A stretch of 64,000 bases of DNA from an uncultured Gemmatimonadales bacterium (GCA_963717315.1 CAVQWA010000009.1:720-64719); one strand, 5' to 3'; shown: positions 21,159 to 35,172, counted from the first letter of the stretch. The notes: generated from the sequence alone by a model not told the origin. Program-made: numbers and translations.

Positions 21159-22208
21159 TCAATGCCCCATCTCCGCGTGGTGCGGCGCGCCCCGCCGCAC
21201 CGTGGGGCGCGGGAGGGCCGGGTCGAAGTCCACCGCGCGCCCGCCCTGGTTGTTCGCCCCCATCCGCTCCCCCATCGCCCGCCATTCCGCGTGCGGCACG
21301 GTGTCGGTCGCGCCATCCCGGTAGCGCGCGGCCATCCGCAGGAGCTCGGCCCGCTTGCCCGAGGCCGGCACCCGGCCGGACGCGAGAATGTCCGAGACCA
21401 CGTCGTGCATCGCGTGGAGGTTGTCGAAGATCGCGGCTGCCCCGGGATAGCGGGCCGCGAAGCGGGGCGCCACCACCGAGGTCATCGGCATGAGGTACGG
21501 GAGCCCGTCGAGGCCGGCGTCCACCATCTGCCAGAACCGGCCCACCGCCTGCGCCACGCGCCGCTGCCGACCCGCCGGGTCGGCGTCCGCCATCAGGGCG
21601 TCGTAGAGCCCGACCTGTATCCAGTGGTAGGCCCAGATCAGGCCGTTGAACTTCGGGTACCGCTCGCGGAAGGCGAGCGAGTAGTCGTGACCCTCCATCA
21701 GCTCCAGCGACTTGGGCGTCGCGGCGAAGGCGAGGTCGGGCCGGGACCGATAGTGGCGGACCAGCTCCGCCACGGCGGCATCCTTGGCCCCCTCGCCCAG
21801 CCGTTCGTCCGCCCAGACGTCGTAGATCTGGCGGTGGAGGAGGTGGGCCCAGTCGAACATCAGCTTCACCTCCGGCACCAGCCGGGCGTACTCCACCTCG
21901 ATCGCCGACTCCTCGAGCGGGAGAGCGGGCGGGTTCCGGAGCACCGTGCCGACCAGGTGCCGGAACTCGCGCTCCTCCAGGAGCGATGGGTCGGCATCGG
22001 GGCGGGTCAGCAGGGTCTCGTAGAGGATCGCGTGCCCGTAATCGAAGCCGTTGAAGAGCCGGTCGGCCCCCGGGTACGCCCGGCGGAACGCCCAGTTGTG
22101 CCCCGCCTGCAGGTAGGCCTGCTCGTCGGTGGTGACCCACTGCGCCCGTGCCTCGCCGGCGCCGAGCGTGACGGCAAGGAGGACGAGCGCGAAGACGCGC
22201 GACCTCAT
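21159..22208 (-). CDS. Secreted alpha-helical His/Trp/Tyr-rich protein of unknown function (last gene of the copper operon)
   Basis: Start at MRSRVFALVLLAVTLGAGEARA (ATG 22208), which overlaps the upstream stop (ATGA). Repeated His motifs WAHLLHRQIY, YHWIQ, NLHAMHDV and a C-terminal HHAEMGH. No family recognised. Confidence 0.6.
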   Translation of the reverse strand: MRSRVFALVLLAVTLGAGEARAQWVTTDEQAYLQAGHNWAFRRAYPGADRLFNGFDYGHAILYETLLTRPDADPSLLEEREFRHLVGTVLRNPPALPLEESAIEVEYARLVPEVKLMFDWAHLLHRQIYDVWADERLGEGAKDAAVAELVRHYRSRPDLAFAATPKSLELMEGHDYSLAFRERYPKFNGLIWAYHWIQVGLYDALMADADPAGRQRRVAQAVGRFWQMVDAGLDGLPYLMPMTSVVAPRFAARYPGAAAIFDNLHAMHDVVSDILASGRVPASGKRAELLRMAARYRDGATDTVPHAEWRAMGERMGANNQGGRAVDFDPALPRPTVRRGAPHHAEMGH

Positions 22209-22990
22209 CGGGCACCCGCCCGGCTGCGCGCCAGCGCGGTCATCCAGCCGAGGCCCATCCGCAGGCCCCAACCCCGCGAGTCACCGCCCACCCGGTAGCG
22301 GACGCCCGCGTCCGCCACGAGGCGCGGGGTGAGCTGGCGCCGGCCACCGACGCCCACGTCCCAATCGAGCGCCGCGCCGTCCGCGAAGGCTTCGCCCACC
22401 AGGAGCTCGGCCCCGAGGAGGGTGGCTGCGAGCGGAAGCGCCCGGTCCACCGCCAGGCCAGCCCGCCACCGGTGCTGGTCGGCGTGGGCGGCGGCGGAGG
22501 GCCCGAAGGTCCCCGAGGCATTCAGGTGCACGCGGCTCCGGCCGAAGGTGCGGGTGAGGATGGCCCCCAGGGCCGTGAAGGCGGCGTCGGGCGCCTCCGA
22601 GCCGACGGGGAGGAGCACTTCGGCCTCGAGCGCGAGCGCCGGGATGCCGCGGGTCTCGACGTTGAGGGCGTGCATCACGCCCAGTTCGACGCCGGCCAGG
22701 CCGCCGCGCGAGTCGGGACCGTCCGACCAGGTCCAGGGGAGCCCGAGCTCGAATTCGGTCCGGGGCAGGAGCCCCGCCGTCACTGACGGCGCCAGGGTCC
22801 AGCCGTAGGCCCCACCCTCCCGCCGGGTCACGTCGAGCGGCGAGAACTGGAACTCCAGCGCCTTCCGCTCGAGCGCGCGGGCGTCGGTGACGTCGAACGG
22901 GTGCCCCCGGTCGAGGTTGTACCAGTCCTTCTGCGCGGCGGCGGGCACGGCCGTGGCCGCGAGGAGCACCACCGGGAGCAGCGCCCTCAT
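22205..22990 (-). CDS. Outer-membrane beta-barrel-like protein (MetA-pathway / transporter-type OMP)
   Basis: Signal peptide [20 protein letters not shown], alternating amphipathic beta-strand pattern, Gly/aromatic-rich. Start overlaps the csoR stop (ATGA). Confidence 0.55.
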   Translation of the reverse strand: MRALLPVVLLAATAVPAAAQKDWYNLDRGHPFDVTDARALERKALEFQFSPLDVTRREGGAYGWTLAPSVTAGLLPRTEFELGLPWTWSDGPDSRGGLAGVELGVMHALNVETRGIPALALEAEVLLPVGSEAPDAAFTALGAILTRTFGRSRVHLNASGTFGPSAAAHADQHRWRAGLAVDRALPLAATLLGAELLVGEAFADGAALDWDVGVGGRRQLTPRLVADAGVRYRVGGDSRGWGLRMGLGWMTALARSRAGAR

Positions 22991-23334
22991 CGCACGTGCT
23001 TGAACATCAGGTCCACCACCTCGTCGTACATCTGCCTCGCCTCGTCCCCGCCCTGCCGGATGGCGTGGCTGGCGCAGTGCTCGAGGTGGTTCTTCATCAG
23101 CGAGCGGGAGACGCCGCGCAGCGCCTCCTGCACCGAGGTGAGCTGCACCAGGATGTCGGCGCAGTAACGCTCCTCCTCGACCATCTTCTGGAGCCCGCGC
23201 ACCTGGCCCTCGATCCGGCGGAGCCGGTGCAGGTTCTTCTGCTTGAGCTCGGGGTCCACGCCGACCGCCTTCCGCCCGTCCGGCCCCACTTCGTGCGAGG
23301 CGCCGCAGCCGCAGGTGATCGTCTCGTCGCTCAT
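22987..23334 (-). CDS. csoR: CsoR/RcnR-family metal-sensing transcriptional repressor
   Basis: DUF156 core [38 protein letters not shown]...HLEHC, which carries the C-H-C ligand pattern. Has a Cys-rich N-terminal extension CGCGASH. Confidence 0.9.
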
Positions 23335-25653
23335 CGCGTCCCTCCCTCGAAGCCCCGGAGCCTGAGGCTGTTGCTGACCACGCTGACCGAGCTGAACGCC
23401 ATCGCGGCGGAGGCGAGAATGGGGCTCAGCAGCAGGCCGAACGCCGGGTAGAGCACCCCCGCCGCCACGGGGATGCCGATCATGTTGTAGATGAGGGCCC
23501 AGAACAGGTTCTGGCGCATCGTCCCCATCGTGCGGCGTGAGAGCCCGAGCGCATCGGCGAGCGCGTGCAGGTCGTCGCGGAGCAGGGTGATGTCGGCGGC
23601 ATCCGCCGCCACGTCAGCGCCGGCGCCCATCGCCACGCCCACGTCGGCCTGGGCGAGCGCCGGCGCGTCGTTCACGCCGTCGCCCACCATCGCCACCACG
23701 CGGCCCTCGGCCTGGGCCCGCTTCACGTAGTCCACCTTGCCCTTCGGGCAGTACCTCGGACTCGACCGCGTCGATCCCCGCCTCGCGGGCGATCGCCGCG
23801 GCCGCGCCCCGGCGGTCGCCGGTGAGCATCGCCACCCGGAGGCCGAGCCGGTGGAGCCGCTCCACCGCAGCTCGGCTGGTCGGCTTGAGCCGGTCGGCGA
23901 GTGCGATGGCCCCGCGGGCCTTCCCGTCCACCGCCACCAGCACCGGCGTGGCGCCCGCCGCGGCAAACCGCTCGGCGGCCTCGAGCGCGCCGCCCGGCGC
24001 CACGCCCTCCGATTCGAGCAGCTTCGCGGTGCCCACCAGCACCCGCCGGCCGGCCACATCCCCCACCGCCCCGAAGCCGGCCCGCGCCTCGAAGCGCTCC
24101 GGTTCCGGCAGGTCCAGTCCGCGCTCCCCGGCCCAGGCGACGATGGCTCGGGCGAGCGGATGCTCCGAGCCGCGCTCGAGCCCCGCGGCAAGCCGTGCGG
24201 CCTCGTCATCGAGCTCGGCACCCGTCACCCGCGGCTTCCCCTCGGTGAGGGTGCCGGTCTTGTCGAGCACCACCGTATCCACGTCGGCCGCGCGCTGCAG
24301 CGGCTCGCCGCCCTTGATCAGGACCCCCAGCTCCGCGCCCCGGCCGGTGGCGACCATCACCGCCGTCGGCACCGCCAGGCCCATCGCACAGGGACAGGCG
24401 ATGATGAGCACCGCCACCGCGGCCGTGAGGGCGCGCACCGGGTCGTCGCCGATGATGGTCCAGGCCACGAAGGTGGCGACCGCGATCGAAACCACGGCCG
24501 GGACGAACACCGCCGAGATCCGGTCGGCCAGCCCCTGGATCGGCGCGCGCGATCCCTGCGCCTCGCGCATAAGCGCCACGATCCGGCCCAGCGCGCTGTC
24601 GGCGCCGAGGGCCGTGGCGCGGATCCGGATCGCGCCAGACTGATTGAGCGTGCCCGTGCTCACCCGGCTTCCCGGCGCCTTGTCCACCGGGATGCTCTCG
24701 CCGGTGAGCACCGACTCGTCCACCGCGCTCGTGCCCGAGAGCACCTCGCCGTCCACCGGCATCCGCTCGCCGGGCCGGACGAGGATCGTGTCGCCCCGCC
24801 GGACCTGGGGGAGCGGCACGGCCACCTCGCGGCCGTCGCGCACCACGGTGGCCTCGAGCGGCTGCAGCGCCGCCAGCCCGCGGAGCGCCTCGGCGGTGCG
24901 CCGCTTGGCCCGTGCCTCGAAGGCGTTCCCGAGGAGCACCAGCGCCACGATGATGATCACCGCCTCGTAATACACGTCCGGCGCCACGCCCCGGGCCGCG
25001 AACCACCCCGGCGCCAGCGTCACGGCGGCGGAGAAGAGGAACGCGGCGCCGGTGCCCACCGCCACGAGCGTGTCCATCGTGGCGGAGTGGTGCCGGAATG
25101 CGGCCCAGGCGTTGACGTAGAAATGGCGGCCGGCCCAGACCATTACCACCAGCGTGAGGGCGAGCAGCGTCCAGCGGAGGGCGCCGTGGGGAACGGCGTA
25201 GAGCCAGGGGATGGCGCCCCGGAGCGAGGGCTCGAGCGTCTGCATCACCCAGTTCATCACCGGGTCGGTGGAGCCGTGCGGCCCCGCGCCCATCAGGGGC
25301 ATCGAGAGCAGCATCGCCACCGCGCCGATGGCGAGGCTCACCAGGGAGCGGAACCGGAGCCGGTGGTACTCCTCCTCGCGCGAGCGATCCTGCGCCTCCT
25401 GCTCGTCGAAGGCGCTGCGCTCGGCGGAGGGGAGCTCGGCCTCGTACCCGGCGCTCCGGACCGTCTCCACCAGGGCCTCGGGGGAGACGGCCGCGGGGTC
25501 GAAGGCGACCGTCGCCTGCTCGGTCATCAGGTTCACGTTGGCGTCGCGGACGCCGGGGGCCTGCTGGAGCGCCTGCTGGACCCGGGCCTGGCAGGAGGCG
25601 CAGTGCATCCCGGTGACGGGGAAGGTGATCCGCTCCTCGGTGTGCGTGGTCAT
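23331..25653 (-). pseudogene. copA: Copper-translocating P1B-type ATPase CopA, reading frame broken by a single-base insertion
   Basis: HMA domain [11 protein letters not shown] motif ([11 protein letters not shown]) and DKTGTLT lie in the frame of ORF 23614..25653. [16 protein letters not shown] and the last TM helices lie in the frame of ORF 23331..24221. The switch is at ...EVLPEG|KVDYVK, where the coding strand reads GAAGGGCAAG instead of GAAGGCAAG (plus-strand CCC 23740-23742). Confidence 0.75.
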
Positions 25654-25659
25654 CGTGGG

Positions 25660-26040
25660 CTACTCGGCGATGAGCCGCCCGCGGAGCATGTTCATGCCGC
25701 AGGTGAACTCGTAGGTGCCGGGCGCGGCCGGCGTGATCTCGATGGGGGTGCGCGCGAACGGCTCGAGGAACTTCCGCACGCCGAAGTCGGGGAACACCAC
25801 TTCCTCCGAGCAGCTCGCGTCCTCCTGGCGGTCGAAGACCAGCCGGACCGGCTGGCCGGCGCGGACCCGGATGGAGCCGGGGTCGTACCCGCCGCGGACG
25901 GCGACGACGATCTCCTGGAGGCCGCCCGCCGGGGCGGCCGCGGCCGCCACCGGGGTGCGCCCGGCGCGGAAGAACCACCAGTAGACGAAGGTGATGGCGG
26001 TGAACCCGCCGAAGAGGACCAGCCAGTCGGTGCCGTTCAT
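25660..26040 (-). CDS. Membrane-anchored cupredoxin-like domain protein (Cupredoxin_1 type), first gene of the copper operon
   Basis: N-terminal TM helix WLVLFGGFTAITFVYWWFF, then a cupredoxin-like fold ending EFTCGMNMLRG. Confidence 0.7.
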   Translation of the reverse strand: MNGTDWLVLFGGFTAITFVYWWFFRAGRTPVAAAAAPAGGLQEIVVAVRGGYDPGSIRVRAGQPVRLVFDRQEDASCSEEVVFPDFGVRKFLEPFARTPIEITPAAPGTYEFTCGMNMLRGRLIAE

Positions 26041-26090
26041 ACGACCCCCAGGGATGCCTGAGGGCCGAATCTATATACCCCCTCCCCCTA

Positions 26091-26124
26091 TGTCAAGCTC
26101 CGGGATCGAACGCGAGACCTCCTG
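26091..26124 (-). other. Decayed tRNA 3'-half-like fragment (anticodon-stem 3' strand, variable loop, T-arm)
   Basis: The minus strand reads CAGGAGGTCTCGCGTTCGATCCCGGAGCTTGACA. It matches 25 of 34 positions of the same part of tRNA-Ala at 35100-35133, including CAGGAGGTC and TTCGATCCCGG. The T-stem no longer pairs and no 5' half is present. Confidence 0.55.
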
Positions 26125-29008
26125 CTACGGGCTTCGAGCGGCGATGTCCCGCACCTCGGACGCCTGCCACAGCCCGTTGGGAGTCGGGACAGGAGGTAGC
26201 GGGCCAGTACTTGGTCTCGGCGACGGTACCCAAGGCGGTTGCCGGCCGCAGGTGAATCGTGCACTGCCCAGAGGGCTCCTCGATCACCGATGTCGCGACA
26301 ATCCTCCCTTCATCGCCGTGGAACGGGCCACCGAGCCGGACGCCCGGGACCAGGACATCCTGGTGCGGCCCGGTGATGGTCAGGGTGGAGTCCGCGTTCA
26401 CCGCCACCCGAAACTCGAGCAGGCGAGAACTCCACGGTCCGTTCGGAGCCCCGAGCCGCTCGAGCGCGACCAGCCGCGACCCGTCGGGGGAGAGGTCCCA
26501 CGCCGGCGTGGAGATCGGGGTGAACCGGGTGGACGCACCGGTCCGCAGGTCGAAGAGCAGCCCGTGGTAGAAGAGGTACCGCCCCTGGGGATGCAGGTGG
26601 ACGTCATCCGGCCAGACGTACGCCGCCCCGCCGGTCGAATCGGTCAGCAACACGGAGGAGAGCAGGCCCCCGGTGGCCTGGGAGTAGAGGTCAATGAAGT
26701 AGGCCGTGAGGGTCGGGCGCTGCAGGACGAAGACGTCGTCTCCGTCGAACCGCGCGGACTGGTTGTTCCAGGTCCGGAGCCGGGCCCCGAGCGGGTCAAA
26801 CGTCGCAACGGAATGATCGCGACCATTCAGTGAATCCTCGTTCAGGTGGACCGAAAGCTGCCGCCCCCCAGGCGCCACGGAGATCCTGGCCGGGTACCAC
26901 TGGGCGTGGGCAATAGGGGTGGTCCGCACGATCTCGAAATCCCGCAGCACGGAGAACGACACCGGGGGATTGGCGAGCACCTGCTGCCCGCAGAGGGGGT
27001 TGTCGCCCCGGTCCTGGGAAAGGAGCTGGAGGGCGCCGTAGGCATCAAGCTGGTACACCGGTTCCGGGAAACCCTGCACCGGCGTGCGGGGCACGAGCAG
27101 CCCCGTCACCGAGTCCCGGATCGCGACCCGGCTCCCGCGCTCCAGGTAGTCCACCAGCTGGGCCGGTGAGAGTGACGGGTCCCGCGCCAGGAGCAGGGCC
27201 GCGGTCCCGGCGACCAACGGCGCTGCGAACGATGTGCCATTCCCAAAGGCGAGCGTCCCTGTGGTCGTGGCGGCCCATACCCCCTTGGCAGGAGCCGCAA
27301 GGCCCGTATGGCCCAGGTAGAATCCCGAACCCACATTGCCATCGTCCCAGGCCACGTTGCCGGGCGACGTGCCCGCAACAAACAGGATGCGGTCGGCGTA
27401 TCCCGCGGCGCGAAGCTCCAGCAGAGCGCGATCCATGGCCGCACTGCGGATCGGCTGCGCCCGCAGGTTCGCCAGGCTCCGATTGAGCCGCTCATTGCCA
27501 GTTGTCTGAACCCAAAGCAAACCCGGGACGCTATCGAACAGTCTTGCGAGGCCCGCACGGAGGTATTCCACCGCGACCGTATCGTTGCTAAGACCGATCC
27601 CGATCGTGCTTACGACCACCCGGGGGGACTCGCCGGCCAATCGCGGGAGAATCCCGTTCACCAGTGCCGTCCCTGCCGTCCCGGTCTCGACATAGTTGCG
27701 GGCGCCGATGCCGAGTGCGCGCAACCGACCTCCCCAAACCATGCCGGCAATGCCCAGCATATTGTCTGCCCGGGAGCCCGCCAACGAAGCCACGGCCGCG
27801 GCATGGCCCACCCAGAAGAGTGAGTCGGCAGAGAGGCCGATCGTCCGTTGCTGGCTCGATACTTCCTGCCCCCCAGGCGGGAAGGGGACCCTTGCCGCAG
27901 AGTAATCCACCAGGTCCGGCGGGACGGCACTCGTGGGCACCTCGGCTTCGAGCAAGTGGATCGCGGGCGGAGCAGAACCTGGATACTGGCCGTTCTCGCA
28001 CGCCCAAGCCTGCGGCGCACGGATCGCAGAGGGCGCCCAGAGTTCGGCGACGCCGTCGATCCAGGCCTGCCTCGTGAAGCCACCATCAGAGGGGAATCTC
28101 CCGTCCACCCTTCCCACCCCACCGCGACGCGTCATCGGACCTGCGACCCGCACAATGGGTTCACCATGGAGTGAATCGAGGAGGGCTTTGACGTCCGTCC
28201 AAGTGGGCCCCGGATCGGGGAACCTGAGGATGAAGAGGCGGGCGAACGAACTCCCACCGGCGAGGCTCGCACCGTACTTCTCCAGCAGTGCGCGGAAGGC
28301 AGTTCCGTCCGCCTCCGGCCGGAGCCAGATGCCGATCATCCGCCGGTAGTAGTCGTAACCCGGCGCAAGCGAGTCCTCGATCACAAACAGGGATTCCGCG
28401 GCGAACGTCATCTGGTCGTGGATGATGGGCAGCGCCGAATCAGGCAGCTCCGCCCGGATCTCGAACGAGATCCTGGCCGCGGTGGTCTTGTTGGGCACGA
28501 TGAGTTGCAGCGTCCGGATCGGGGTCGAGTCGCCGGGGATCGTGCCCCCATTCTCGAGGAGAGTCCAGAATGCCGCACCGGCGTCCGCCCCACCGGCTCC
28601 CCCGACGCTGTCCGCGTTCGCTTCCACCACCCGTGCCGTGACGGTGCTCGGCGCCGTGACCACCCCCGAGTCCCTCGGCAGCACCACGAGGATCGGCGCG
28701 TCCCGCCCGCCCGGCCCCCGGTTCACCACCCGCACGGGGATGCTCACCTTCCGCTGGTTCTTGACGTACCCCACGGCCCCCGCGCCGACCAGCGCGAGCC
28801 CGGTGGCGCAGCCCGAGTCCGCGGCGAAACTGGCCTGGGCCGTGGTCCCCCCGACGATCTGCACGTGCACCCGGGTGCACGGGCCCGCCGAGCCGACGGC
28901 GAGCATCGGCGCGGGCCGCAGGGTGTCCTGCCGCGGGCCGATGGGATCGGGCCCGGTGCAGCTCAACGACCCCAGCAGCGAAATGAATCCGACGAGGCAG
29001 GTGGTCAT
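26093..29008 (-). CDS. Subtilase (peptidase S8)-like lipoprotein, tandem copy 1: signal peptide, Ig-like region, I9-like propeptide, S8 domain, beta-propeller-like C-terminus
   Basis: GGAGGG RBS 5 nt before ATG 29008. Signal MTTCLVGFISLLGSLSC. S8 blocks VGHAAAVASLAG (His), VQTTGNER (Asn) and GTSFAAPLVAGTAALLLARDP (Ser). The C-terminal tail is one base out of frame relative to copies 2 and 3 (extra base near 26181-26185). Confidence 0.85.
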   Translation of the reverse strand: MTTCLVGFISLLGSLSCTGPDPIGPRQDTLRPAPMLAVGSAGPCTRVHVQIVGGTTAQASFAADSGCATGLALVGAGAVGYVKNQRKVSIPVRVVNRGPGGRDAPILVVLPRDSGVVTAPSTVTARVVEANADSVGGAGGADAGAAFWTLLENGGTIPGDSTPIRTLQLIVPNKTTAARISFEIRAELPDSALPIIHDQMTFAAESLFVIEDSLAPGYDYYRRMIGIWLRPEADGTAFRALLEKYGASLAGGSSFARLFILRFPDPGPTWTDVKALLDSLHGEPIVRVAGPMTRRGGVGRVDGRFPSDGGFTRQAWIDGVAELWAPSAIRAPQAWACENGQYPGSAPPAIHLLEAEVPTSAVPPDLVDYSAARVPFPPGGQEVSSQQRTIGLSADSLFWVGHAAAVASLAGSRADNMLGIAGMVWGGRLRALGIGARNYVETGTAGTALVNGILPRLAGESPRVVVSTIGIGLSNDTVAVEYLRAGLARLFDSVPGLLWVQTTGNERLNRSLANLRAQPIRSAAMDRALLELRAAGYADRILFVAGTSPGNVAWDDGNVGSGFYLGHTGLAAPAKGVWAATTTGTLAFGNGTSFAAPLVAGTAALLLARDPSLSPAQLVDYLERGSRVAIRDSVTGLLVPRTPVQGFPEPVYQLDAYGALQLLSQDRGDNPLCGQQVLANPPVSFSVLRDFEIVRTTPIAHAQWYPARISVAPGGRQLSVHLNEDSLNGRDHSVATFDPLGARLRTWNNQSARFDGDDVFVLQRPTLTAYFIDLYSQATGGLLSSVLLTDSTGGAAYVWPDDVHLHPQGRYLFYHGLLFDLRTGASTRFTPISTPAWDLSPDGSRLVALERLGAPNGPWSSRLLEFRVAVNADSTLTITGPHQDVLVPGVRLGGPFHGDEGRIVATSVIEEPSGQCTIHLRPATALGTVAETKYWPATSCPDSQRAVAGVRGAGHRRSKPVAGGLAFDPGA

Positions 29009-29047
29009 CAGCCCTCCAGTGGGGAGACGACGAGGGTGCCCGGCGTC

Positions 29048-31942
29048 CTACATGCAAGAACTCGCAGCGGCGATGTCCCGCACCTCGGACGCCTGCCACA
29101 GCCCGTTGGGACCCGGGCAGGACGTGGCGGGCCAGAACCTGGTCTCGGCCACGGTACCCAAGGCGGTTGCCGGCCGCAGGTGAATCGTGCACTGCCCAGA
29201 GGGCTCCTCGATCACCGATGTCGCGACAATCCTCCCTTCATCGCCGTGGAACGGGCCACCGAGCCGGACGCCCGGGACCAGGACATCCTGGTGCGGCCCG
29301 GTGATGGTCAGGGTGGAGTCCGCGTTCACCGCCACCCGAAACTCGAGCAGGCGAGAACTCCACGGTCCGTTCGGAGCCCCGAGCCGCTCGAGCGCGACCA
29401 GCCGCGACCCGTCGGGGGAGAGGTCCCACGCCGGCGTGGAGATCGGGGTGAACCGGGAAGACGCACCGCTCCGGAGGTCGAAGATCAAGCCGCGGTAGAA
29501 GAGGTACCGCCCCTGGGGATGCAGGTGGACCTCATCCGGCCAGACGTACGCCGCCCCGCCGGTCGAGTCGGTCAGCAGCACGGAGGAGAGCAGGCCTCCG
29601 GTGGCCTGGGAGTACAGGTCGACGAAGTAGGCCGTGAGGGTCGGGCGCTGGAGGACGAAGACGTCGTCTCCGTCGAACCGCGCGGACTGGTTGTTCCAGG
29701 TCCGGAGCCGGGCCCCGAGCGGGTCAAACGTCGCAACGGAATGATCGCGACCATTCAGTGAATCCTCGTTCAGGTGGACCGAAAGCTGCCGCCCCCCAGG
29801 CGCCACGGAGATCCTGGCCGGGTACCACTGGGCGTGGGCAATAGGGGTGGTCCGCACGATCTCGAAATCCCGCAGCACGGAGAACGACACCGGGGGATTG
29901 GCGAGCACCTGCTGGCCGCAGAGGGGGCTGTCGCCCTGGTCCTGGGAAAGGAGCTGGAGGGCGCCGTAGGCATCAAGCTGGTACACCGGTTCCGGGAAAC
30001 CCTGCACCGGCGTGCGGGGCACGAGCAGCCCCGTCACCGAGTCCCGGATCGCGACCCGGCTCCCGCGCTCCAGGTAGTCCACCAGCTGGGCCGGTGAGAG
30101 TGACGGGTCCCGCGCCAGGAGCAGGGCCGCGGTCCCGGCGACCAGGGGCACCGCGAACGAGGTGCCGTTGCCGAATGCGAGCGTACCGTTGGTGGTTGCC
30201 GCCCAAACGTCCTCAGCAGGCGCCGCGATTGTGGTGTTACCGAGGTAGAAGCCAGAGCCTAAGCTAGGGCTTGTTCCCAGCCAGGCTGTGTTCCCAGGCT
30301 CGGTCCCGGCGACGAACAGGATGCGGTCGGCGAATCCCTGCGAACGAAGCTCCAGCAGCACCCGATCCATGGCAGCACTGCGGATCGGCTGCGTCTGGAG
30401 GTCCGCCAAGCTGCGATCTTGCCGCTCGTTGCCCGTGGTCTGGATCCACAGGAGGTCTGGAGTAGCCTCGAATAGCCGGCGGAGCCCAGTGCGGAGGTAA
30501 TCCACAACCGCGCTGTCGTTGCTCCACCCGATTCCGATCGTGCTCACCAGGACCCGCGGACCCTCGGCTGCGAGCAACGGGACGATGTAATTCACCAATG
30601 CGGTTCCGGCAGTTCCCGTCTCGACATAATTCCGAGCACCGAGCCCTACTGCGCGTACTCCGCCTCCCCAGACCATGCCGGCAATCCCAACTCCGTTATC
30701 AGCCCGCGAGCCCAGCAGCGAGCTGACCGCCGCAGCGTGACCGGCCCACGCCACGGAGTCCGCCGCGATATCGATCGTTCGCTGTGCACCCGACACTTCC
30801 TGCCCGGATGGAGGGAACGGGACTCTTGCGGCGGAGTAGCTGGCGAGGTCAGCCGGGACCGATCCCGAGGCCACCTCTGCTTCAAGCTGATAGACCAGGG
30901 GAGGGGTGGACCCGGAGTACCGGCCGTTCTCGCACCCCCAAGCCAGTGGGGCGCGAATCGCGAGCGCAGCCCACAAGCCAGGCGCTCGCTGAATCCACGA
31001 CTGCCTCGTGAACCCGCCGTCCGTGGGGTAACGCCCGTCCACTCTCCCCGGTCCTCCCCGGCGCGTCATAGGATATGCGACCTTCACGATTGGCTCGGCG
31101 TGAAGCGAATCCAGGAGGGCTTTCACATCGTTCCAAGTGGGGCCGGGGTCGGGGAACCGGAGGATGTAGAGTCCCACGAAATTGCTGCCTCCTGCAAGGC
31201 TGGCGTTGTACTTCTGTGCCAGCGCACGGAAGGCATCGCCGTCAGCCCCGGGATTCAAGCGCAGGCCGATCATCCGCCGGTAGTAGTCGTAACCCGGCGC
31301 AAGCGAATCCTCGATCACAAACAGGGATTCCGCGGCGAATGTCATCTGGTCGTGGATGATGGGCAGCGCCGAATCAGGCAGCTCCGCCCGGATCTCGAAC
31401 GAGATCCTGGCCGCGGTGGTCTTGTTGGGCACGATGAGTTGCAGCGTCCGGATCGGGGTCGAGTCGCCGGGGATCGTGCCCCCATTCTCGAGGAGGGTCC
31501 AGAATGCCGCACCGGCGTCCGCCCCACCGGCTCCCCCGACGCTGTCCGCGTTCGCTTCCACCACCCGTGCCGTGACGGTGCTCGGCGCCGTGACCACCCC
31601 CGAGTCCCTCGGCAGCACCACGAGGATCGGCGCGTCCCGCCCGCCCGGCCCCCGGTTCACCACCCGCACGGGGATGCTCACCTTCCGCTGGTTCTTGACG
31701 TACCCCACGGCCCCCGCGCCGACCAGCGCGAGCCCGGTGGCGCAGCCCGAGTCCGCGGCGAAACCGGCCGTGGCCGTGGTCCCCCCGACGATCTGCACGT
31801 GCACCCGGGTGCACGGGCCCGCCGAGCCGACGGCGAGCATCGGCGCGGGCCGCAGGGTGTCCTGCCGCGGGCCGATGGGATCGGGGCCGCTGCAGCTCAA
31901 CGACCCCAGCAGCGAAATGAAGCCGACGAGACAGGTGGTCAT
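29048..31942 (-). CDS. Subtilase (peptidase S8)-like lipoprotein, tandem copy 2 (divergent propeptide and protease core)
   Basis: Same architecture as copy 1. N-terminal ~226 aa and C-terminal ~370 aa are near-identical to copy 1. The central region is clearly diverged (AGHAAAVSSLLG, IQTTGNER, GTSFAVPLVAG). Confidence 0.9.
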   Translation of the reverse strand: MTTCLVGFISLLGSLSCSGPDPIGPRQDTLRPAPMLAVGSAGPCTRVHVQIVGGTTATAGFAADSGCATGLALVGAGAVGYVKNQRKVSIPVRVVNRGPGGRDAPILVVLPRDSGVVTAPSTVTARVVEANADSVGGAGGADAGAAFWTLLENGGTIPGDSTPIRTLQLIVPNKTTAARISFEIRAELPDSALPIIHDQMTFAAESLFVIEDSLAPGYDYYRRMIGLRLNPGADGDAFRALAQKYNASLAGGSNFVGLYILRFPDPGPTWNDVKALLDSLHAEPIVKVAYPMTRRGGPGRVDGRYPTDGGFTRQSWIQRAPGLWAALAIRAPLAWGCENGRYSGSTPPLVYQLEAEVASGSVPADLASYSAARVPFPPSGQEVSGAQRTIDIAADSVAWAGHAAAVSSLLGSRADNGVGIAGMVWGGGVRAVGLGARNYVETGTAGTALVNYIVPLLAAEGPRVLVSTIGIGWSNDSAVVDYLRTGLRRLFEATPDLLWIQTTGNERQDRSLADLQTQPIRSAAMDRVLLELRSQGFADRILFVAGTEPGNTAWLGTSPSLGSGFYLGNTTIAAPAEDVWAATTNGTLAFGNGTSFAVPLVAGTAALLLARDPSLSPAQLVDYLERGSRVAIRDSVTGLLVPRTPVQGFPEPVYQLDAYGALQLLSQDQGDSPLCGQQVLANPPVSFSVLRDFEIVRTTPIAHAQWYPARISVAPGGRQLSVHLNEDSLNGRDHSVATFDPLGARLRTWNNQSARFDGDDVFVLQRPTLTAYFVDLYSQATGGLLSSVLLTDSTGGAAYVWPDEVHLHPQGRYLFYRGLIFDLRSGASSRFTPISTPAWDLSPDGSRLVALERLGAPNGPWSSRLLEFRVAVNADSTLTITGPHQDVLVPGVRLGGPFHGDEGRIVATSVIEEPSGQCTIHLRPATALGTVAETRFWPATSCPGPNGLWQASEVRDIAAASSCM

Positions 31943-31981
31943 CAGCCCTCCAGTGGGGAGACGACGAGGGTGCCCGGCGTC

Positions 31982-34872
31982 CTACATGCAAGAACTCGCA
32001 GCTGCGATGTCCCGCACCTCGGACGCCTGCCACAGCCCGTTGGGCTCGGGACACGACGCAGCGGGCCAGAACCTGGTCTCGGCCGACGGTACCCAAGGCG
32101 GTTGCCGGCCGCAGGTGAATCGTGCACTGCCCAGAGGGCTCCTCGATCACCGATGTCGCGACAATCCTCCCTTCATCGCCGTGGAACGGGCCACCGAGCC
32201 GGACGCCCGGGACCAGGACATCCTGGTGCGGCCCGGTGATGGTCAGGGTGGAGTCCGCGTTCACCGCCACCCGAAACTCGAGCAGGCGAGAACTCCACGG
32301 TCCGTTCGGAGCCCCGAGCCGCTCGAGCGCGACCAGCCGCGACCCGTCGGGGGAGAGGTCCCACGCCGGCGTGGAGATCGGGGTGAACCGGGTGGACGCA
32401 CCGGTCCGCAGGTCGAAGAGCAGCCCGTGGTAGAAGAGGTACCGCCCCTGGGGATGCAGGTGGACGTCATCCGGCCAGACGTACGCCGCCCCGCCGGTCG
32501 AATCGGTCAGCAACACGGAGGAGAGCAGGCCCCCGGTGGCCTGGGAGTAGAGGTCAATGAAGTAGGCCGTGAGGGTCGGGCGCTGCAGGACGAAGACGTC
32601 GTCTCCGTCGAACCGCGCGGACTGGTTGTTCCAGGTCCGGAGCCGGGCCCCGAGCGGGTCAAACGTCGCAACGGAATGATCGCGACCATTCAGTGAATCC
32701 TCGTTCAGGTGGACCGAAAGCTGCCGCCCCCCAGGCGCCACGGAGATCCTGGCCGGGTACCACTGGGCGTGGGCAATAGGGGTGGTCCGCACGATCTCGA
32801 AATCCCGCAGCACGGAGAACGACACCGGGGGATTGGCGAGCACCTGCTGGCCGCAGAGGGGGCTGTCGCCCTGGTCCTGGGAAAGGAGCTGGAGGGCGCC
32901 GTAGGCATCAAGCTGGTACACCGGTTCCGGGAAACCCTGCACCGGCGTGCGGGGCACGAGCAGCCCCGTCACCGAGTCCCGGATCGCGACCCGGCTCCCG
33001 CGCTCCAGGTAGTCCACCAGCTGGGCCGGTGAGAGTGACGGGTCCCGCGGCCAGGAGCAGGGCCGCGGTCCCGGCGACCAACGGCGCTGCGAACGATGTG
33101 CCATTCCCAAAGGCGAGCGTCCCTGTGGTCGTGGCGGCCCATACCCCCTTGGCAGGAGCCGCAAGGCCCGTATGGCCCAGGTAGAATCCCGAACCCACAT
33201 TGCCATCGTCCCAGGCCACGTTGCCGGGCGACGTGCCCGCAACAAACAGGATGCGGTCGGCGTATCCCGCGGCGCGAAGCTCCAGCAGAGCGCGATCCAT
33301 GGCCGCACTGCGGATCGGCTGCGCCCGCAGGTTCGCCAGGCTCCGATTGAGCCGCTCATTGCCAGTTGTCTGAACCCAAAGCAAACCCGGGACGCTATCG
33401 AACAGTCTTGCGAGGCCCGCACGGAGGTATTCCACCGCGACCGTATCGTTGCTAAGACCGATCCCGATCGTGCTTACGACCACCCGGGGGGACTCGCCGG
33501 CCAATCGCGGGAGAATCCCGTTCACCAGTGCCGTCCCTGCCGTCCCGGTCTCGACATAGTTGCGGGCGCCGATGCCGAGTGCGCGCAACCGACCTCCCCA
33601 AACCATGCCGGCAATGCCCAGCATATTGTCTGCCCGGGAGCCCGCCAACGAAGCCACGGCCGCGGCATGGCCCACCCAGAAGAGTGAGTCGGCAGAGAGG
33701 CCGATCGTCCGTTGCTGGCTCGATACTTCCTGCCCCCCAGGCGGGAAGGGGACCCTTGCCGCAGAGTAATCCACCAGGTCCGGCGGGACGGCACTCGTGG
33801 GCACCTCGGCTTCGAGCAAGTGGATCGCGGGCGGAGCAGAACCTGGATACTGGCCGTTCTCGCACGCCCAAGCCTGCGGCGCACGGATCGCAGAGGGCGC
33901 CCAGAGTTCGGCGACGCCGTCGATCCAGGCCTGCCTCGTGAAGCCACCATCAGAGGGGAATCTCCCGTCCACCCTTCCCACCCCACCGCGACGCGTCATC
34001 GGACCTGCGACCCGCACAATGGGTTCACCATGGAGTGAATCGAGGAGGGCTTTGACGTCCGTCCAAGTGGGCCCCGGATCGGGGAACCTGAGGATGAAGA
34101 GGCGGGCGAACGAACTCCCACCGGCGAGGCTCGCACCGTACTTCTCCAGCAGTGCGCGGAAGGCAGTTCCGTCCGCCTCCGGCCGGAGCCAGATGCCGAT
34201 CATCCGCCGGTAGTAGTCGTAACCCGGCGCAAGCGAATCCTCGATCACAAACAGGGATTCCGCGGCGAATGTCATCTGGTCGTGGATGATGGGCAGCGCC
34301 GAATCAGGCAGCTCCGCCCGGATCTCGAACGAGATCCTTGCCGCGGTGGTCTTGTTGGGCACGATGAGTTGCAGCGTCCGGATCGGGGTCGAGTCGCCGG
34401 GGATCGTGCCCCCATTCTCGAGGAGAGTCCAGAATGCCGCACCGGCGTCCGCCCCACCGGCTCCCCCGACGCTGTCCGCATTCGATTCCACGACGCGTGC
34501 CGTGACGGTGCTCGGCGCCGTGACGACGCCCGAGTCCCTCGGCAGCACCACGAGGATCGGCGCGTCCCGCCCACCCGGCCCCCGGTTTGCTACTCGCACG
34601 GGGATGCTCACCTTCCGCTGGTTCTTGACGTACCCCACGGCCCCCGCGCCGACCAGCGCGAGCCCGGTGGCGCAGCCCGAGTCCGCCGCGAAACTGGCCT
34701 GGGCCGTGGTCCCCCCGACGATCTGCACGTGCACCCGGGTGCACGGGCCCGCCGAGCCGACGGCGAGCATCGGCGCGGGCCGCAGGGTGTCCTGCCGCGG
34801 GCCGATGGGATCGGGGCCGCTGCAGCTCAACGACCCCAGCAGCGACATGAAGCCGACGAGGCAGGTGGTCAT
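31982..34872 (-). pseudogene. Subtilase (peptidase S8)-like lipoprotein, tandem copy 3, interrupted by two single-base insertions
   Basis: The N-terminal 2/3 is in ORF 32908..34917 and the C-terminal 1/3 in the frame of ORF 31374..33422. There is an extra G at 33049/33050 (GGTCCCGCGGCCAGG against GGTCCCGCGCCAGG in copies 1 and 2). There is an extra base at ~32085 (GGCCGACGG against GGCCACGG or GGCGACGG). With both removed, the ORF ends ...ASSCM* at 31982. Confidence 0.75.
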
Positions 34873-35099
34873 CAGCCCTCCGGTCGGGAGACGGCGAGGG
34901 TGCCCGGCGTCCGACATGCAAGAACTCGCAGTCGTGGGTGGAAGGGAGGCGCAAACTGGCTCCCGGCCACGATAGCGGATTCAGGGGGGGCACAACCCAT
35001 CAAGCGTGACAGGGTCCGAATGGCGCCCGAAGCCGTCGCGGGTGGAGGCCTTCCCCGCCGCGAGTGGCAGGGGGAGCGGTCGGAGGGGGAAATGCGGCA

Positions 35100-35172
35100 T
35101 GGAGCGTACCGGGATCGAACCGGTGACCTCCTGGTTGCAAACCAGGCGCTCTCCCAGCTGAGCTAACGCCCC
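35100..35172 (-). tRNA. tRNA-Ala (anticodon TGC)
   Basis: Minus strand GGGGCGTTAGCTCAGCTGGGAGAGCGCCTGGTTTGCAACCAGGAGGTCACCGGTTCGATCCCGGTACGCTCCA. It folds as a cloverleaf with a 7-bp acceptor stem carrying the G3:U70 Ala identity pair, anticodon loop TTTGCAA and T-loop TTCGATC. CCA is not encoded. Confidence 0.95.

Follow-up and report, generated by a model that had tools for sequence, protein, structure and literature searches.

Two divergent core alleles between near-identical ends in a three-copy subtilase lipoprotein gene array beside tRNA-Ala of an uncultured Gemmatimonadales bacterium

In a stretch of 64,000 nucleotides from an uncultured Gemmatimonadales bacterium (hereafter the window), a subtilase lipoprotein gene of ~965 aa forms an exact three-unit tandem array, which runs head-to-tail on the minus strand between 26137 and 34931 with direct repeat units spaced 2928-2935 nt apart (Table 1). 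No further copies occur in the window. The host is a soil-type or environmental organism, and the array is known from a single assembly. Each copy is made up of an N-terminal module (N module), a core and a C-terminal module (C module). All three units are full length, with their own start codon and GGAGGG ribosome-binding site, and copy 2 is the only one in which the family reading frame is unbroken from start to stop. The last 59 nt of the leader (34873-34931) are already repeat-unit sequence and reappear as the junctions between copies. The related loci L001, L003, L004 and L091 have sequence upstream of their genes that matches the leader with 81-93% identity, and Rfam returned nothing besides the tRNA when a regulatory RNA was sought in the leader. 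No terminator-like site was found between the copies on the coding strand; we infer a joint transcript of the copies from the leader.

A small variable islet, flanked by tRNA-Ala and a copper-resistance operon, houses the array. In L003, the same tRNA precedes the single-copy homologue. The pattern AGGAGGTC-N5-TTCGATCCCGG (19 specified bases) occurs twice in the window, at 26100-26123 and inside the tRNA, where 0 occurrences were expected; L001 has a perfect 27-nt tRNA repeat at the same place as the former, and L003 and L004, which carry type II C modules, are without the remnant. The unique flank that follows (flank D) is common to L003, L004, L090 and L091. The G+C content is 0.683 in the islet and 0.72-0.74 in the flanks, and the neighbouring genes encode an aminotransferase, a cupredoxin, CopA and an epimerase. 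Neither an integrase nor another mobility gene was found among the neighbouring ORFs scanned. Like tRNA-associated islands, the islet occupies a site 3′ of a tRNA, has a partial distal repeat and a lower G+C content, and varies in content among relatives; unlike them, it has no mobility gene, and its cargo is a single gene family.

Table 1. Features of the array and its flanks, in window coordinates
Feature	Position	Strand	Remarks
Promoter-like site	26068..26096	-	TTGACA, 17 nt, TAGATT; for the downstream cupredoxin/copA operon; unique flank D begins
Copy 1	26093..29008	-	971 aa; last in array; core allele A
Degenerate direct repeat of tRNA-Ala T-arm and 3′ part	26100..26123	-	directly after array; distal islet boundary
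Core allele A in copy 1 (propeptide and S8 catalytic domain)	27217-28330	-	three-way alignment
Junction of copies 2 and 1	29009..29047	-	39 nt; GGAGGG five nt before ATG (alignment)
Copy 2	29048..31942	-	964 aa; core allele B
Copy 2-specific C-module patch	29458..29651	-	16 differences from copies 1 and 3 in ~200 nt
Core allele B in copy 2	30145..31264	-	three-way alignment and 50-nt identity windows
Junction of copies 3 and 2	31943-31981	-	counterpart of the copy 2/copy 1 junction
Copy 3	31982..34872	-	first in transcription order; N module, core allele A, C module
Three-site patch	32850-32872	-	copy 3 equals copy 2, copy 1 different; inside otherwise copy 1-like 2.1-2.2 kb of copy 3
Core allele A in copy 3	33081..34194	-	identical to copy 1 core
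Copy 3-divergent N-module stretch	34480..34594	-	unlike both other copies
Leader U	34873..35099	-	between tRNA-Ala and first start codon
tRNA-Ala(TGC)	35100..35172	-	ARAGORN; Rfam tRNA 68 bits; directly upstream of array, proximal islet boundary

The protein is predicted to consist of a signal peptide with a lipobox, a beta-rich N domain, a fervidolysin-like prodomain, an S8 domain (Glu-His-Ser) and, probably, a beta-propeller, in that order. The lipobox-like signal peptide was read by eye from the sequence of the N end. The profile PF00082 was matched with 37.5 bits by copy 1 and 36.7 bits by copy 2 (cut-off 21.8), and by 30/30 aligned family members. The His (GHAAAV), the Asn of the oxyanion hole (TTGNE) and the Ser (GTSFA.P) are kept in both core alleles, His and Ser being invariant in the family. 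The position of the catalytic Asp is occupied by Glu (L-E-A-E-V) in all three copies and by D or E across relatives; the Pfam alignment opens past the Asp motif, at profile position 31-39. A Fervidolysin_NPro-like domain was found in 6 of 30 family members. For the C module, profile matches were weak (S9-peptidase, TolB-like and WD40 propellers, E 1e-4 to 1e-2), and PD40 was matched in 2 of 30 relatives. An AlphaFold2 model from a 12-sequence alignment had a mean pLDDT of 51 and was confident only for residues ~190-670, which comprise the prodomain and catalytic domain. The "anchoring" N end and "propeller" C module of a preliminary description of this DNA are plausible. Overall, the protein resembles the subtilases (MEROPS S8, PF00082) in its profile match, its His, Asn and Ser motifs and its fervidolysin-type prodomain, and it differs from them in the Glu at the Asp position, the added lipoprotein N domain and the C-terminal probable beta-propeller. 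About 130 cluster representatives of such S8 lipoprotein-like proteins of ~1000 aa were counted, and no specific name for this family was found in the sources. Its distant members P0164 and P0159 each occur as a lone gene, in unrelated contexts that have no tRNA close by, and therefore the tandem organisation is not a family trait.

The identity of copies 1 and 2 is 98% in the initial 678 nt and in the final ~1 kb (N module, 98.5%; C module, 97.8%) but only ~69% in the sharply bounded 1.1-kb core block, which holds the propeptide and the catalytic core. This contrast had been reported in the preliminary description, whose coordinates for the block agree with ours in copy 1 but start at 30175 rather than 30145 in copy 2. 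In 50-nt windows, the left edge is marked by a drop in the identity of the two copies from 98% to 66% and the right edge by a rise from 84% to 100%. The cores of copies 1 and 3 have 0 differences in 1114 nt, the longest exact match between these copies being 1187 nt, and the shadow ORFs at 27308-27823 and 33172-33687 are identical, as described before. Across the core, the three-way alignment contains 354 consecutive sites at which copies 1 and 3 agree and copy 2 differs. Synonymous divergence (dS) between copies 1 and 2 is 0.033 in the N module, 1.81 (saturated) in the core and 0.048 in the C module. We therefore attribute the pattern of conserved ends and variable core to recombination and not to mere selective constraint. 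Both core alleles are under purifying selection: dN between A and B is 0.20 with a dN/dS of 0.11, and dN/dS of the cores is 0.11-0.4.

Related metagenome contigs share the locus order tRNA-Ala, gene and copper operon with one copy, and L001, L003, L004 and L091 have the layout leader U, gene, flank D. The samples that contain L001, L002, L091 and L090 are SRR14877758, SRR14877751, JGI 3300037484 and JGI 3300037424. Because the relatives are single-copy, the amplification is recent. Copy 2 is orthologous to the single genes of L001 and L091; its dS to L001 is 0.33 in the N module, 0.33 in the core and 0.29 in the C module, and over 2936 nt its identity to L091 is 91.2%. The ends of copies 1 and 2 are 90-92% identical to those of L001 and L091 (dS about 0.3). 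Paralogous ends are thus closer within the genome than to orthologues, whereas the cores show the reverse, with a dS of 0.33 between copy 2 and L001 against 1.81 between copies 1 and 2. Since the relatives are single-copy and the closest of them are orthologues of copy 2, the ends were recently duplicated or homogenised, and both core lineages are much older. As far as the three sequences go, gene conversion and recent duplication with allele import would account for the near-identical ends equally well.

The locus is hypervariable among relatives, which join the same N module to at least four very different cores and to two C-module types; allele types C and D (about 55% aa identity) fill this position in other populations. 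A-type tracts lie within the B-type core of L001 (longest A run 16 sites, P<5e-5), the tract being 81% identical to copy 1 and 62% identical to copy 2, and the core of L091 is almost purely B. Therefore, both core lineages predate the separation of these populations and recombine with each other. Among copy 2, L001 and L091, a 269-nt B tract is 98.5-100% identical against a background of 91%, which points to exchange between populations. In sequence searches, core allele A did not occur outside the present contig: scans of genome and metagenome contigs with the copy 1 protein gave no relative, and neither did a scan of metagenome contigs with a conserved 44-nt DNA pattern.

The differences among the three copies lie in blocks and are not spread evenly, as judged from the three-way alignment and window identity. 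Discordant sites sit in contiguous, sharp-ended tracts beyond chance (runs, permutations and 50-nt identity steps); site-order permutation gave P=0.008 for runs and P=0.004 for the longest run in the N module, and P=0.0009 and P=5e-5, respectively, in the C module. Copy 3 had been said to match copy 1 in its core and N-terminus, which is true of the core; in the N-terminal 678 nt, it differs by 19 nt from copy 1 and by 19 nt from copy 2, the latter two differing by 10. Its divergent N-module stretch has 4 copy 3-specific changes packed in 7 nt (34588-34594) and 7 further sites at which copy 3 has the outgroup state and copies 1 and 2 share a derived state. Downstream of the core, the segments singled out earlier behave as described: 32709-33032 has 0 differences from 29774-30097 and 3 from 26846-27169, and 32122-32433 has 0 differences from 26259-26570 and 8 from 29187-29498. 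In all, 17 sites at copy 3 positions 32085-32586 unite copies 1 and 3 against copy 2. The three-site patch is bordered by 209 and 264 nt of three-way identity, and at two of its three sites, the state shared by copies 2 and 3 is derived relative to L001. The alternating donor tracts had been taken as the mark of gene conversion; inter-copy recombination is upheld, but the alternation of copy 3 downstream of the core is not, since it depends on three sites. The likeness of the copy 3 tail to copy 2 is trivial because both copies run into the next repeat unit, whereas copy 1 runs into the unique flank.

The flanks of the copy 2-specific patch are 100% identical among the copies. Overall, the groupings of the modules conflict, with copies 1 and 2 together in part of the N module, copies 1 and 3 throughout the core and over most of the C module, and copies 2 and 3 in a small patch, and shared derived states underlie each of the three. 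Derived states that are confined to this genome and common to two copies would favour donors within the array. Three distinct haplotypes can be told apart over no more than 80 nt at the 5′ end, ~76 nt spanning the N/core junction and 40 nt close to the 3′ end, so that at least three unit ends and the N/core junction of copy 3 are resolved at the scale of a read.

After weighing these data, we propose, with a probability of roughly 60%, that the locus is a real three-copy array in which two ancient cores, A and B, stand between near-identical modules, and that RecA-type homologous recombination has acted with crossovers in the conserved modules. The data support homologous recombination between copies and alleles well. 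In the putative history, the unit would have been amplified in this lineage only, its relatives having one copy. The A core would have been set beside a resident B gene, either as an old paralogue with homogenised ends or as an imported divergent allele. A non-reciprocal transfer of about 2.1-2.2 kb, comprising the core and most of the C module, would have made copies 1 and 3, which lie 5.86 kb apart, identical there, and shorter exchanges may have left the derived states shared by copies 1 and 2 in the N module and the C-module patch shared by copies 2 and 3. The direction and order of these events are as we infer them. A single unequal crossover in a two-copy array was rejected as the origin of the third copy, as it puts the hybrid in the middle and cannot yield the order A-B-A with a hybrid last copy; given that order, the most economical course is a non-reciprocal event involving two copies that are not adjacent.

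Part of the pattern could have arisen during assembly. Copy 3 carries +1 insertions at 33050 and 32084/32085 and reads as two overlapping ORFs (32908-34917 and 31374-33422), with the GC3 phase switching at ~33100 and ~32100; removal of the two inserted bases restores a 962-aa frame. In copy 1, about 30 out-of-frame residues take the place of the family C-terminal tail owing to a +1 insertion at 26183. Copy 3 as sequenced is frameshifted and may be a pseudogene. If part of the pattern arose in assembly, the array and the two core types would be real, and the fine mosaic (the copy 3 patch, the 3′ switch, perhaps the identity of copies 1 and 3, and the frameshifts) would be an assembly or polishing artefact from mixed reads of the copies. 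In agreement with this, the four frameshifts within 12 kb are all +1 insertions with no deletions, and one of them lies at ~23741 in the single-copy copA, whose orthologue in L090 encodes an intact 786-aa protein; a GC3-phase survey of the window was too crude to yield a general frameshift rate. Moreover, one copy 3 insertion falls inside the 209-nt interval that holds the first switch and the other exactly at the second switch, where copy 3 reads CG, copy 1 C and copy 2 G, so that both alleles stand side by side in a pattern typical of mis-polished repeats. The copy 1 insertion also falls on a site that varies among the copies, and related short-read contigs (3.0-3.9 kb) end within a few hundred bases of the gene. 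Because the frameshifts of copy 3 coincide with inferred breakpoints, the fine mosaic could be partly a consensus artefact. However, the three haplotypes found in 40-80 nt at both unit ends and at the copy 3 N/core junction would be covered by single reads, and the dS contrast, the sharp core edges and the orthologue comparison are independent of the small patches. Independent assemblies are mosaic as well (L001/L002 compared with L091). We therefore consider an artefactual fine mosaic unlikely, though a real contender.

Exchange within the array might also be dispensed with if a very recent tandem amplification had been followed by replacement of the core of one or two units from another strain, the patches being clustered point mutations. 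The single copy in relatives, the very different alleles C and D at the same locus and the 269-nt B tract are in line with such a course. Yet tree-like duplication with one core replacement cannot reconcile the grouping of copies 1 and 2 in the N module with that of copies 1 and 3 in the core and C module; independent mutation would not give identical shared bases at 3 and 7 sites; and the identical 2.2 kb in non-adjacent copies of an A-B-A array still requires an inter-copy event. Homologous recombination at the same boundaries would be needed in any case, only the donor differing from our preferred explanation, and we judge this course to be rather improbable. Far less credible is a programmed variation system resembling cassette antigenic variation, in which the frameshifted copy 3 would act as a silent donor and mosaics would be frequent within a clone. 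Such a system would suit a predicted surface lipoprotein with one disrupted copy in its array, mosaics that differ between populations and a hypervariable locus. However, every copy is full length with its own translation signals, the disrupted copy is the promoter-proximal one beside the leader, both cores evolve under purifying selection, no more than two core types and a few tracts exist, and the window shows neither inverted repeats nor a specialised element, nor a recombinase among the neighbouring ORFs scanned. Accordingly, of the earlier suggestion that the array shuffles core alleles, past recombination stands, but ongoing or programmed shuffling does not, there being no inverted repeats, no silent-cassette layout and, in the neighbouring ORFs scanned, no recombinase. 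A diversity-generating retroelement was ruled out by the substitution spectrum of the core, which involves all base types (151 transitions and 189 transversions) with 204 of 340 substitutions (60%) at third codon positions; no reverse transcriptase was matched among the neighbouring ORFs scanned, which are part of those in the window. An invertible or site-specific shufflon was likewise rejected, since neither meaningful inverted repeats nor, in the neighbouring ORFs scanned, a recombinase turned up.

The reading that we prefer, recombination between copies and alleles through conserved modules, makes the array a clear but ordinary example of repeated bacterial gene evolution, with no new mechanism. 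In the lpl cluster of Staphylococcus aureus, an example of concerted evolution among bacterial tandem paralogues through interlocus gene conversion or unequal crossing-over, tandem lipoprotein paralogues lie in an islet, where conserved segments recombine and variable ones are shuffled, and the cohesive unit spans two genes, consisting of the 3′ part of one ORF, the spacer and the 5′ part of the next (Tsuru & Kobayashi 2008, PMC2568036). The present array has a similar cohesive unit across two genes, formed by the C module, the junction and the N module. In contrast, lpl genes have a central conserved recombination site and variable ends, whereas here the ends are conserved and the centre is variable; moreover, the present array comprises three copies in a single assembly and encodes a protease rather than an lpl-type lipoprotein. 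In the gingipains, adhesin modules are exchanged while the catalytic domains are stable. The gingipain and adhesin genes of Porphyromonas gingivalis (rgpA, kgp and hagA) resemble the array in being surface protease genes with near-identical non-catalytic modules among paralogues and with strain mosaics formed by recombination or allelic exchange (PMC5266723). They differ in encoding cysteine proteases that are host-associated virulence factors and in being dispersed, whereas the genes here are in tandem in an environmental Gemmatimonadales bacterium.

The array provides a clean and quantifiable case of module-level recombination in a hardly described protein family, in which conserved ends and a variable middle can be dated against orthologues and are thereby attributable to recombination rather than to constraint. 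It also cautions that repeat arrays from metagenomes may hold consensus artefacts exactly at inferred recombination breakpoints. In addition, it draws attention to a locus next to a tRNA at which related populations differ sharply in allele content. As a speculation that we think improbable but worth stating, the tRNA-Ala site might be a population-level allele-cassette locus, with a fixed leader and N module, at least four deeply divergent cores (A, B, C and D, with an overall aa identity of about 55% and less than that in the core itself) and propellers of two types, at which alleles are stacked and disrupted copies serve as donors. If this were true, it would represent recombination-driven diversification of a surface protease under balancing or frequency-dependent selection in a free-living bacterium.

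The gene for a ~965-aa subtilase (S8) lipoprotein forms a perfect tandem array of three units on the minus strand (26137-34931), with a spacing of 2928-2935 nt and each unit starting 59 nt before its ATG. When one unit and its protein were compared with the entire window by BLAST, exactly three copies were recovered and no further ones. Each copy (c1 to c3) consists of an N module, a core (propeptide and S8 catalytic domain) and a C module, and the core is of allele A in c1 and c3 and of allele B in c2. The inter-copy junctions are 39 nt long and carry GGAGGG 5 nt upstream of the start codon, and no terminator-like site was found between the copies on the coding strand; co-transcription from leader U, which lies between tRNA-Ala and the gene, is plausible.

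Features of the subtilase array and its borders (positions within the window)
Feature	Position	Strand	Remark
c3	34872 down to 31982	minus	first in transcription order
c2	31942-29048	minus	964 aa, second in transcription order
c1	29008-26093	minus	971 aa, last in transcription order
tRNA-Ala(TGC)	35100-35172	minus	one side of array
Degenerate direct repeat of tRNA-Ala T-arm and 3' part	26100-26123	minus	other side of array
354-site run (c1=c3, not c2)	c1 27217-28330; c2 30145-31264; c3 33081-34194	minus	MAFFT alignment
269-nt shared B tract	c2 ~30145-30413 (= c1 27217-27479)	minus	just before Ser motif
Hypervariable segment near C-terminus	26140-26222, 29069-29150, 32003-32085	minus	C module identical around it
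Acid position (Glu)	c1 aa ~353 LLEAEV, ~27950; c2 aa ~355 QLEAEV, ~30880	minus	alignment

The preliminary description held that c1 and c2 share conserved ends around a variable core and that c3 is a mosaic made by gene conversion. The three-way alignment with windowed identity that it proposed, made with MAFFT, showed differences in blocks, and the block edges between c1 and c2 are sharp: in 50-nt windows, identity drops from 98% to 66% at the left core edge, ranges from 48 to 84% within the core and, at the right edge, recovers from 84% to 100%. Across the core, c3 agrees with c1 and not with c2 in an unbroken run of 354 sites, and the longest identity between c1 and c3 extends over 1187 consecutive bases. 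Downstream, c3 sides with c2 against c1 at 3 sites (c3 32850-32872) and with c1 against c2 at 17 (c3 32085-32586). Permutation of the non-core sites showed their types to be clustered in both the N module (runs, P=0.008; longest run, P=0.004) and the C module (runs, P=0.0009; longest run, P=5e-5). The exact identities reported earlier were all correct on re-comparison, and the divergent block of c2 starts at 30145 instead of 30175. The N-terminus of c3 does not match copy 1 as had been proposed; over the first 678 nt, c3 differs from c1 and from c2 at 19 positions each, and c1 differs from c2 at 10. The resemblance of the c3 3' tail to c2 exists, but it is trivial, because both copies run into the next unit and c1 runs into unique flank. 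The gene-conversion reading has partial support, strong at the module scale and weak for the small alternating tracts, and a shuffling function is hypothetical.

The cores and the ends differ greatly in age. By the Nei-Gojobori method, dS between c1 and c2 is 0.033 in the N module (226 codons) and 0.048 in the C module (338 codons), compared with a saturated 1.81 in the core (371 codons), where dN/dS is 0.11. Core substitutions involve all base types and 60% of them hit the third codon position; A and B alike retain the catalytic His, Asn and Ser. This pattern argues that A and B are old core lineages, predicted to be functional, and that the ends are young.

The array protein is rare: a search of 5.8 billion sequences gave only four clusters at 90% identity, together with a few members of clusters. 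The flanks are common to related metagenome contigs from Logan (L001/L002, L003 and L004) and JGI (L091 and L090): leader U lies upstream, including the whole tRNA-Ala in L003, and a promoter-like site followed by cupredoxin and copA lies downstream. The gene is single-copy in every related contig holding both flanks, and therefore the triplication is confined to the lineage of the window. Orthologues of c2 are L001 and L091, with dS between c2 and L001 of 0.33 (N module), 0.33 (core) and 0.29 (C module) and 91% identity between c2 and L091 over 2936 nt. The ends of c1 are ~91% identical to L001/L091, yet 98% identical to c2. Ends that evolved in concert or were duplicated very recently, together with a much older split of the cores, classically leave this contrast.

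L003 and L004 share the N module of the array, with a dS of 0.4-0.5 that is similar to the non-coding flank (81-85% identity), and they carry very different cores (types C and D; dS saturated, dN 0.55-0.63) and a second type of C module. A-type tracts occur inside the B-type core of L001 (longest A run 16 sites, P<5e-5), one 155-nt tract of this core being 81% identical to c1 and 62% to c2, and the core of L091 is almost purely B. Therefore, A and B predate the population split and recombine. Among c2, L001 and L091, identity within one 269-nt B tract reaches 98.5-100%, compared with ~91% over the rest of the gene, which shows exchange between populations too and points to recent sharing. An odd relative in the representative library, P0011 (457 aa), combines an N module and propeptide of L004 type with a second, different copy of the propeptide that begins anew at 'ELPDSALP'; either the gene is recombinant or truncated, or the assembly is chimeric.

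Polarising the non-core sites against outgroups gave three incompatible groupings along 2.9 kb, namely c1 with c2, c2 with c3, and c1 with c3 (core and most of the C module). In the N module (c1 28616-28709), c1 and c2 have seven derived states in common where c3 is in the outgroup state; derived states in a 23-nt patch are common to c2 and c3; and four c3-specific changes cluster within 7 nt (34588-34594). One unequal crossover between two tandem copies would leave the hybrid as the middle copy and make A-B-A impossible. Non-reciprocal copying is the simplest account. A tract of ~2.1-2.2 kb would have been copied between the non-adjacent c1 and c3, with shorter exchanges in addition. Just outside both tract ends (34237-34270 and 32070-32073), and in the 23-nt patch inside it, c3 is c2-like, and a c2-like backbone of c3 overwritten by a patchy c1-derived tract fits these sites; we infer the direction and order of the events.

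Frame disruptions bear on how far this detail can be taken. All four in this 12-kb stretch are +1 insertions (33050, 32084-32085, 26183 and ~23741). Two of them, C at 33050 and one base at 32084/32085, split c3 into ORFs 32908-34917 and 31374-33422, and deleting both restores a 962-aa frame. The insertion at 26183 puts the last ~30 residues of c1 out of the family frame. The fourth splits copA (23331-25653, minus strand), a neighbouring, non-repeated gene for a P-type copper ATPase, at ~23738-23745, its Hydrolase domain continuing in another frame; the L090 orthologue is intact (786 aa) and lacks the extra base. Three of the four lie at sites of inter-copy difference or c3 donor switch: one c3 insertion is inside the interval holding the first switch, and the other is exactly at the second, where c3 reads 'CG', c1 has C and c2 has G. 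This suggests either that repair of the tract ends was mutagenic and error-prone or, the more prosaic option, that consensus calling or polishing erred in the repeat. The uniform +1 type, including the case in copA, casts doubt on the fine detail, and so does the c2-like patch in c3, which consists of three sites with 209 and 264 nt on either side in which all three copies are identical. Therefore, the pseudogene status of c3 and its fine mosaic downstream of the core are uncertain. Over short distances, the copies present three different haplotypes: within 80 nt at the 5' ends of the units, within ~76 nt spanning the c3 N/core junction and within 40 nt near the unit 3' ends; therefore, the three units and the c3 N/core join are resolved at read-length scale, which supports a real three-unit array. 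The large-scale conclusions are robust to the doubt over fine detail.

The protein scores above threshold for PF00082 (Peptidase_S8), but the match covers the profile only from position ~31. Glu occupies the catalytic Asp position of subtilases in c1, c2 and c3; an alignment of 30 family representatives has either D or E at this position, with His and Ser fixed throughout and Asn mostly conserved. The array protein may be a Glu-His-Ser subtilase variant. A library-wide HMMER search gave 916 cluster representatives at E<=1e-3 and 134 at E<=1e-30, and family representatives among the matches listed are mostly 900-1100 aa and 30-37% identical. Pfam domains in the family include Fervidolysin_NPro-like (6/30), PD40 (2/30) and an N-terminal CBM96 (8/30). 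By eye, the N-terminus MTTCLVGFISLLGSLSC reads as a lipoprotein signal. AlphaFold2 is confident for residues ~190-670 only, and the C-module profile has weak matches (E 1e-4 to 1e-2) to the beta-propeller domains of S9 peptidases, of WD40 proteins and of a TolB-like protein. Near the C-terminus, a hypervariable segment (ETK/RYW/FWPATSCP...) has ~14 differences in ~80 nt, with all three copies distinct.

The tRNA-Ala gene and the direct repeat bracketing the array look like the att-type scar of an integrated islet. The pattern of the repeated tRNA part is present twice in the window, where none would be expected. L001 carries the tRNA end as a perfect 27-nt copy, and L003 and L004 have none. 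The lower G+C of the array (0.683 versus 0.72-0.74 in the flanks) is consistent with islet status, and no integrase was found among the neighbouring ORFs scanned. Downstream, synteny between the window (22000-26070) and L090 (1135-4266) covers a copper module of cupredoxin, copA and a CsoR-type metal-sensing repressor, conserved at ~91% identity. The organism is a Gemmatimonadales: a molybdopterin oxidoreductase encoded by a neighbouring gene shares 60-69% identity with Gemmatimonadales MAGs, against 38-48% for nearly all matches from other phyla.

Cassette-type programmed variation was judged very unlikely, as every copy is full length and has a start codon of its own; neither a recombinase, among the neighbouring ORFs scanned, nor a special element was found. 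The spread of core substitutions over base types and codon positions excludes a DGR, and an invertible element was excluded as well, no meaningful inverted repeats having been found. The array behaves as tandem paralogues do under interlocus gene conversion or unequal crossing-over. Among described bacterial systems, the nearest analogue we found is the S. aureus lpl lipoprotein cluster, where a conserved segment is the site of the recombination that shuffles variable segments, and the unit inherited together extends over two neighbouring ORFs (PMC2568036). The geometry of our array is inverted, with the ends conserved and the centre variable. The gingipain and adhesin genes of P. gingivalis, which exchange domains and alleles (PMC5266723), offer a second analogue. 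The array site looks like an old tRNA-targeted islet turned variable locus.
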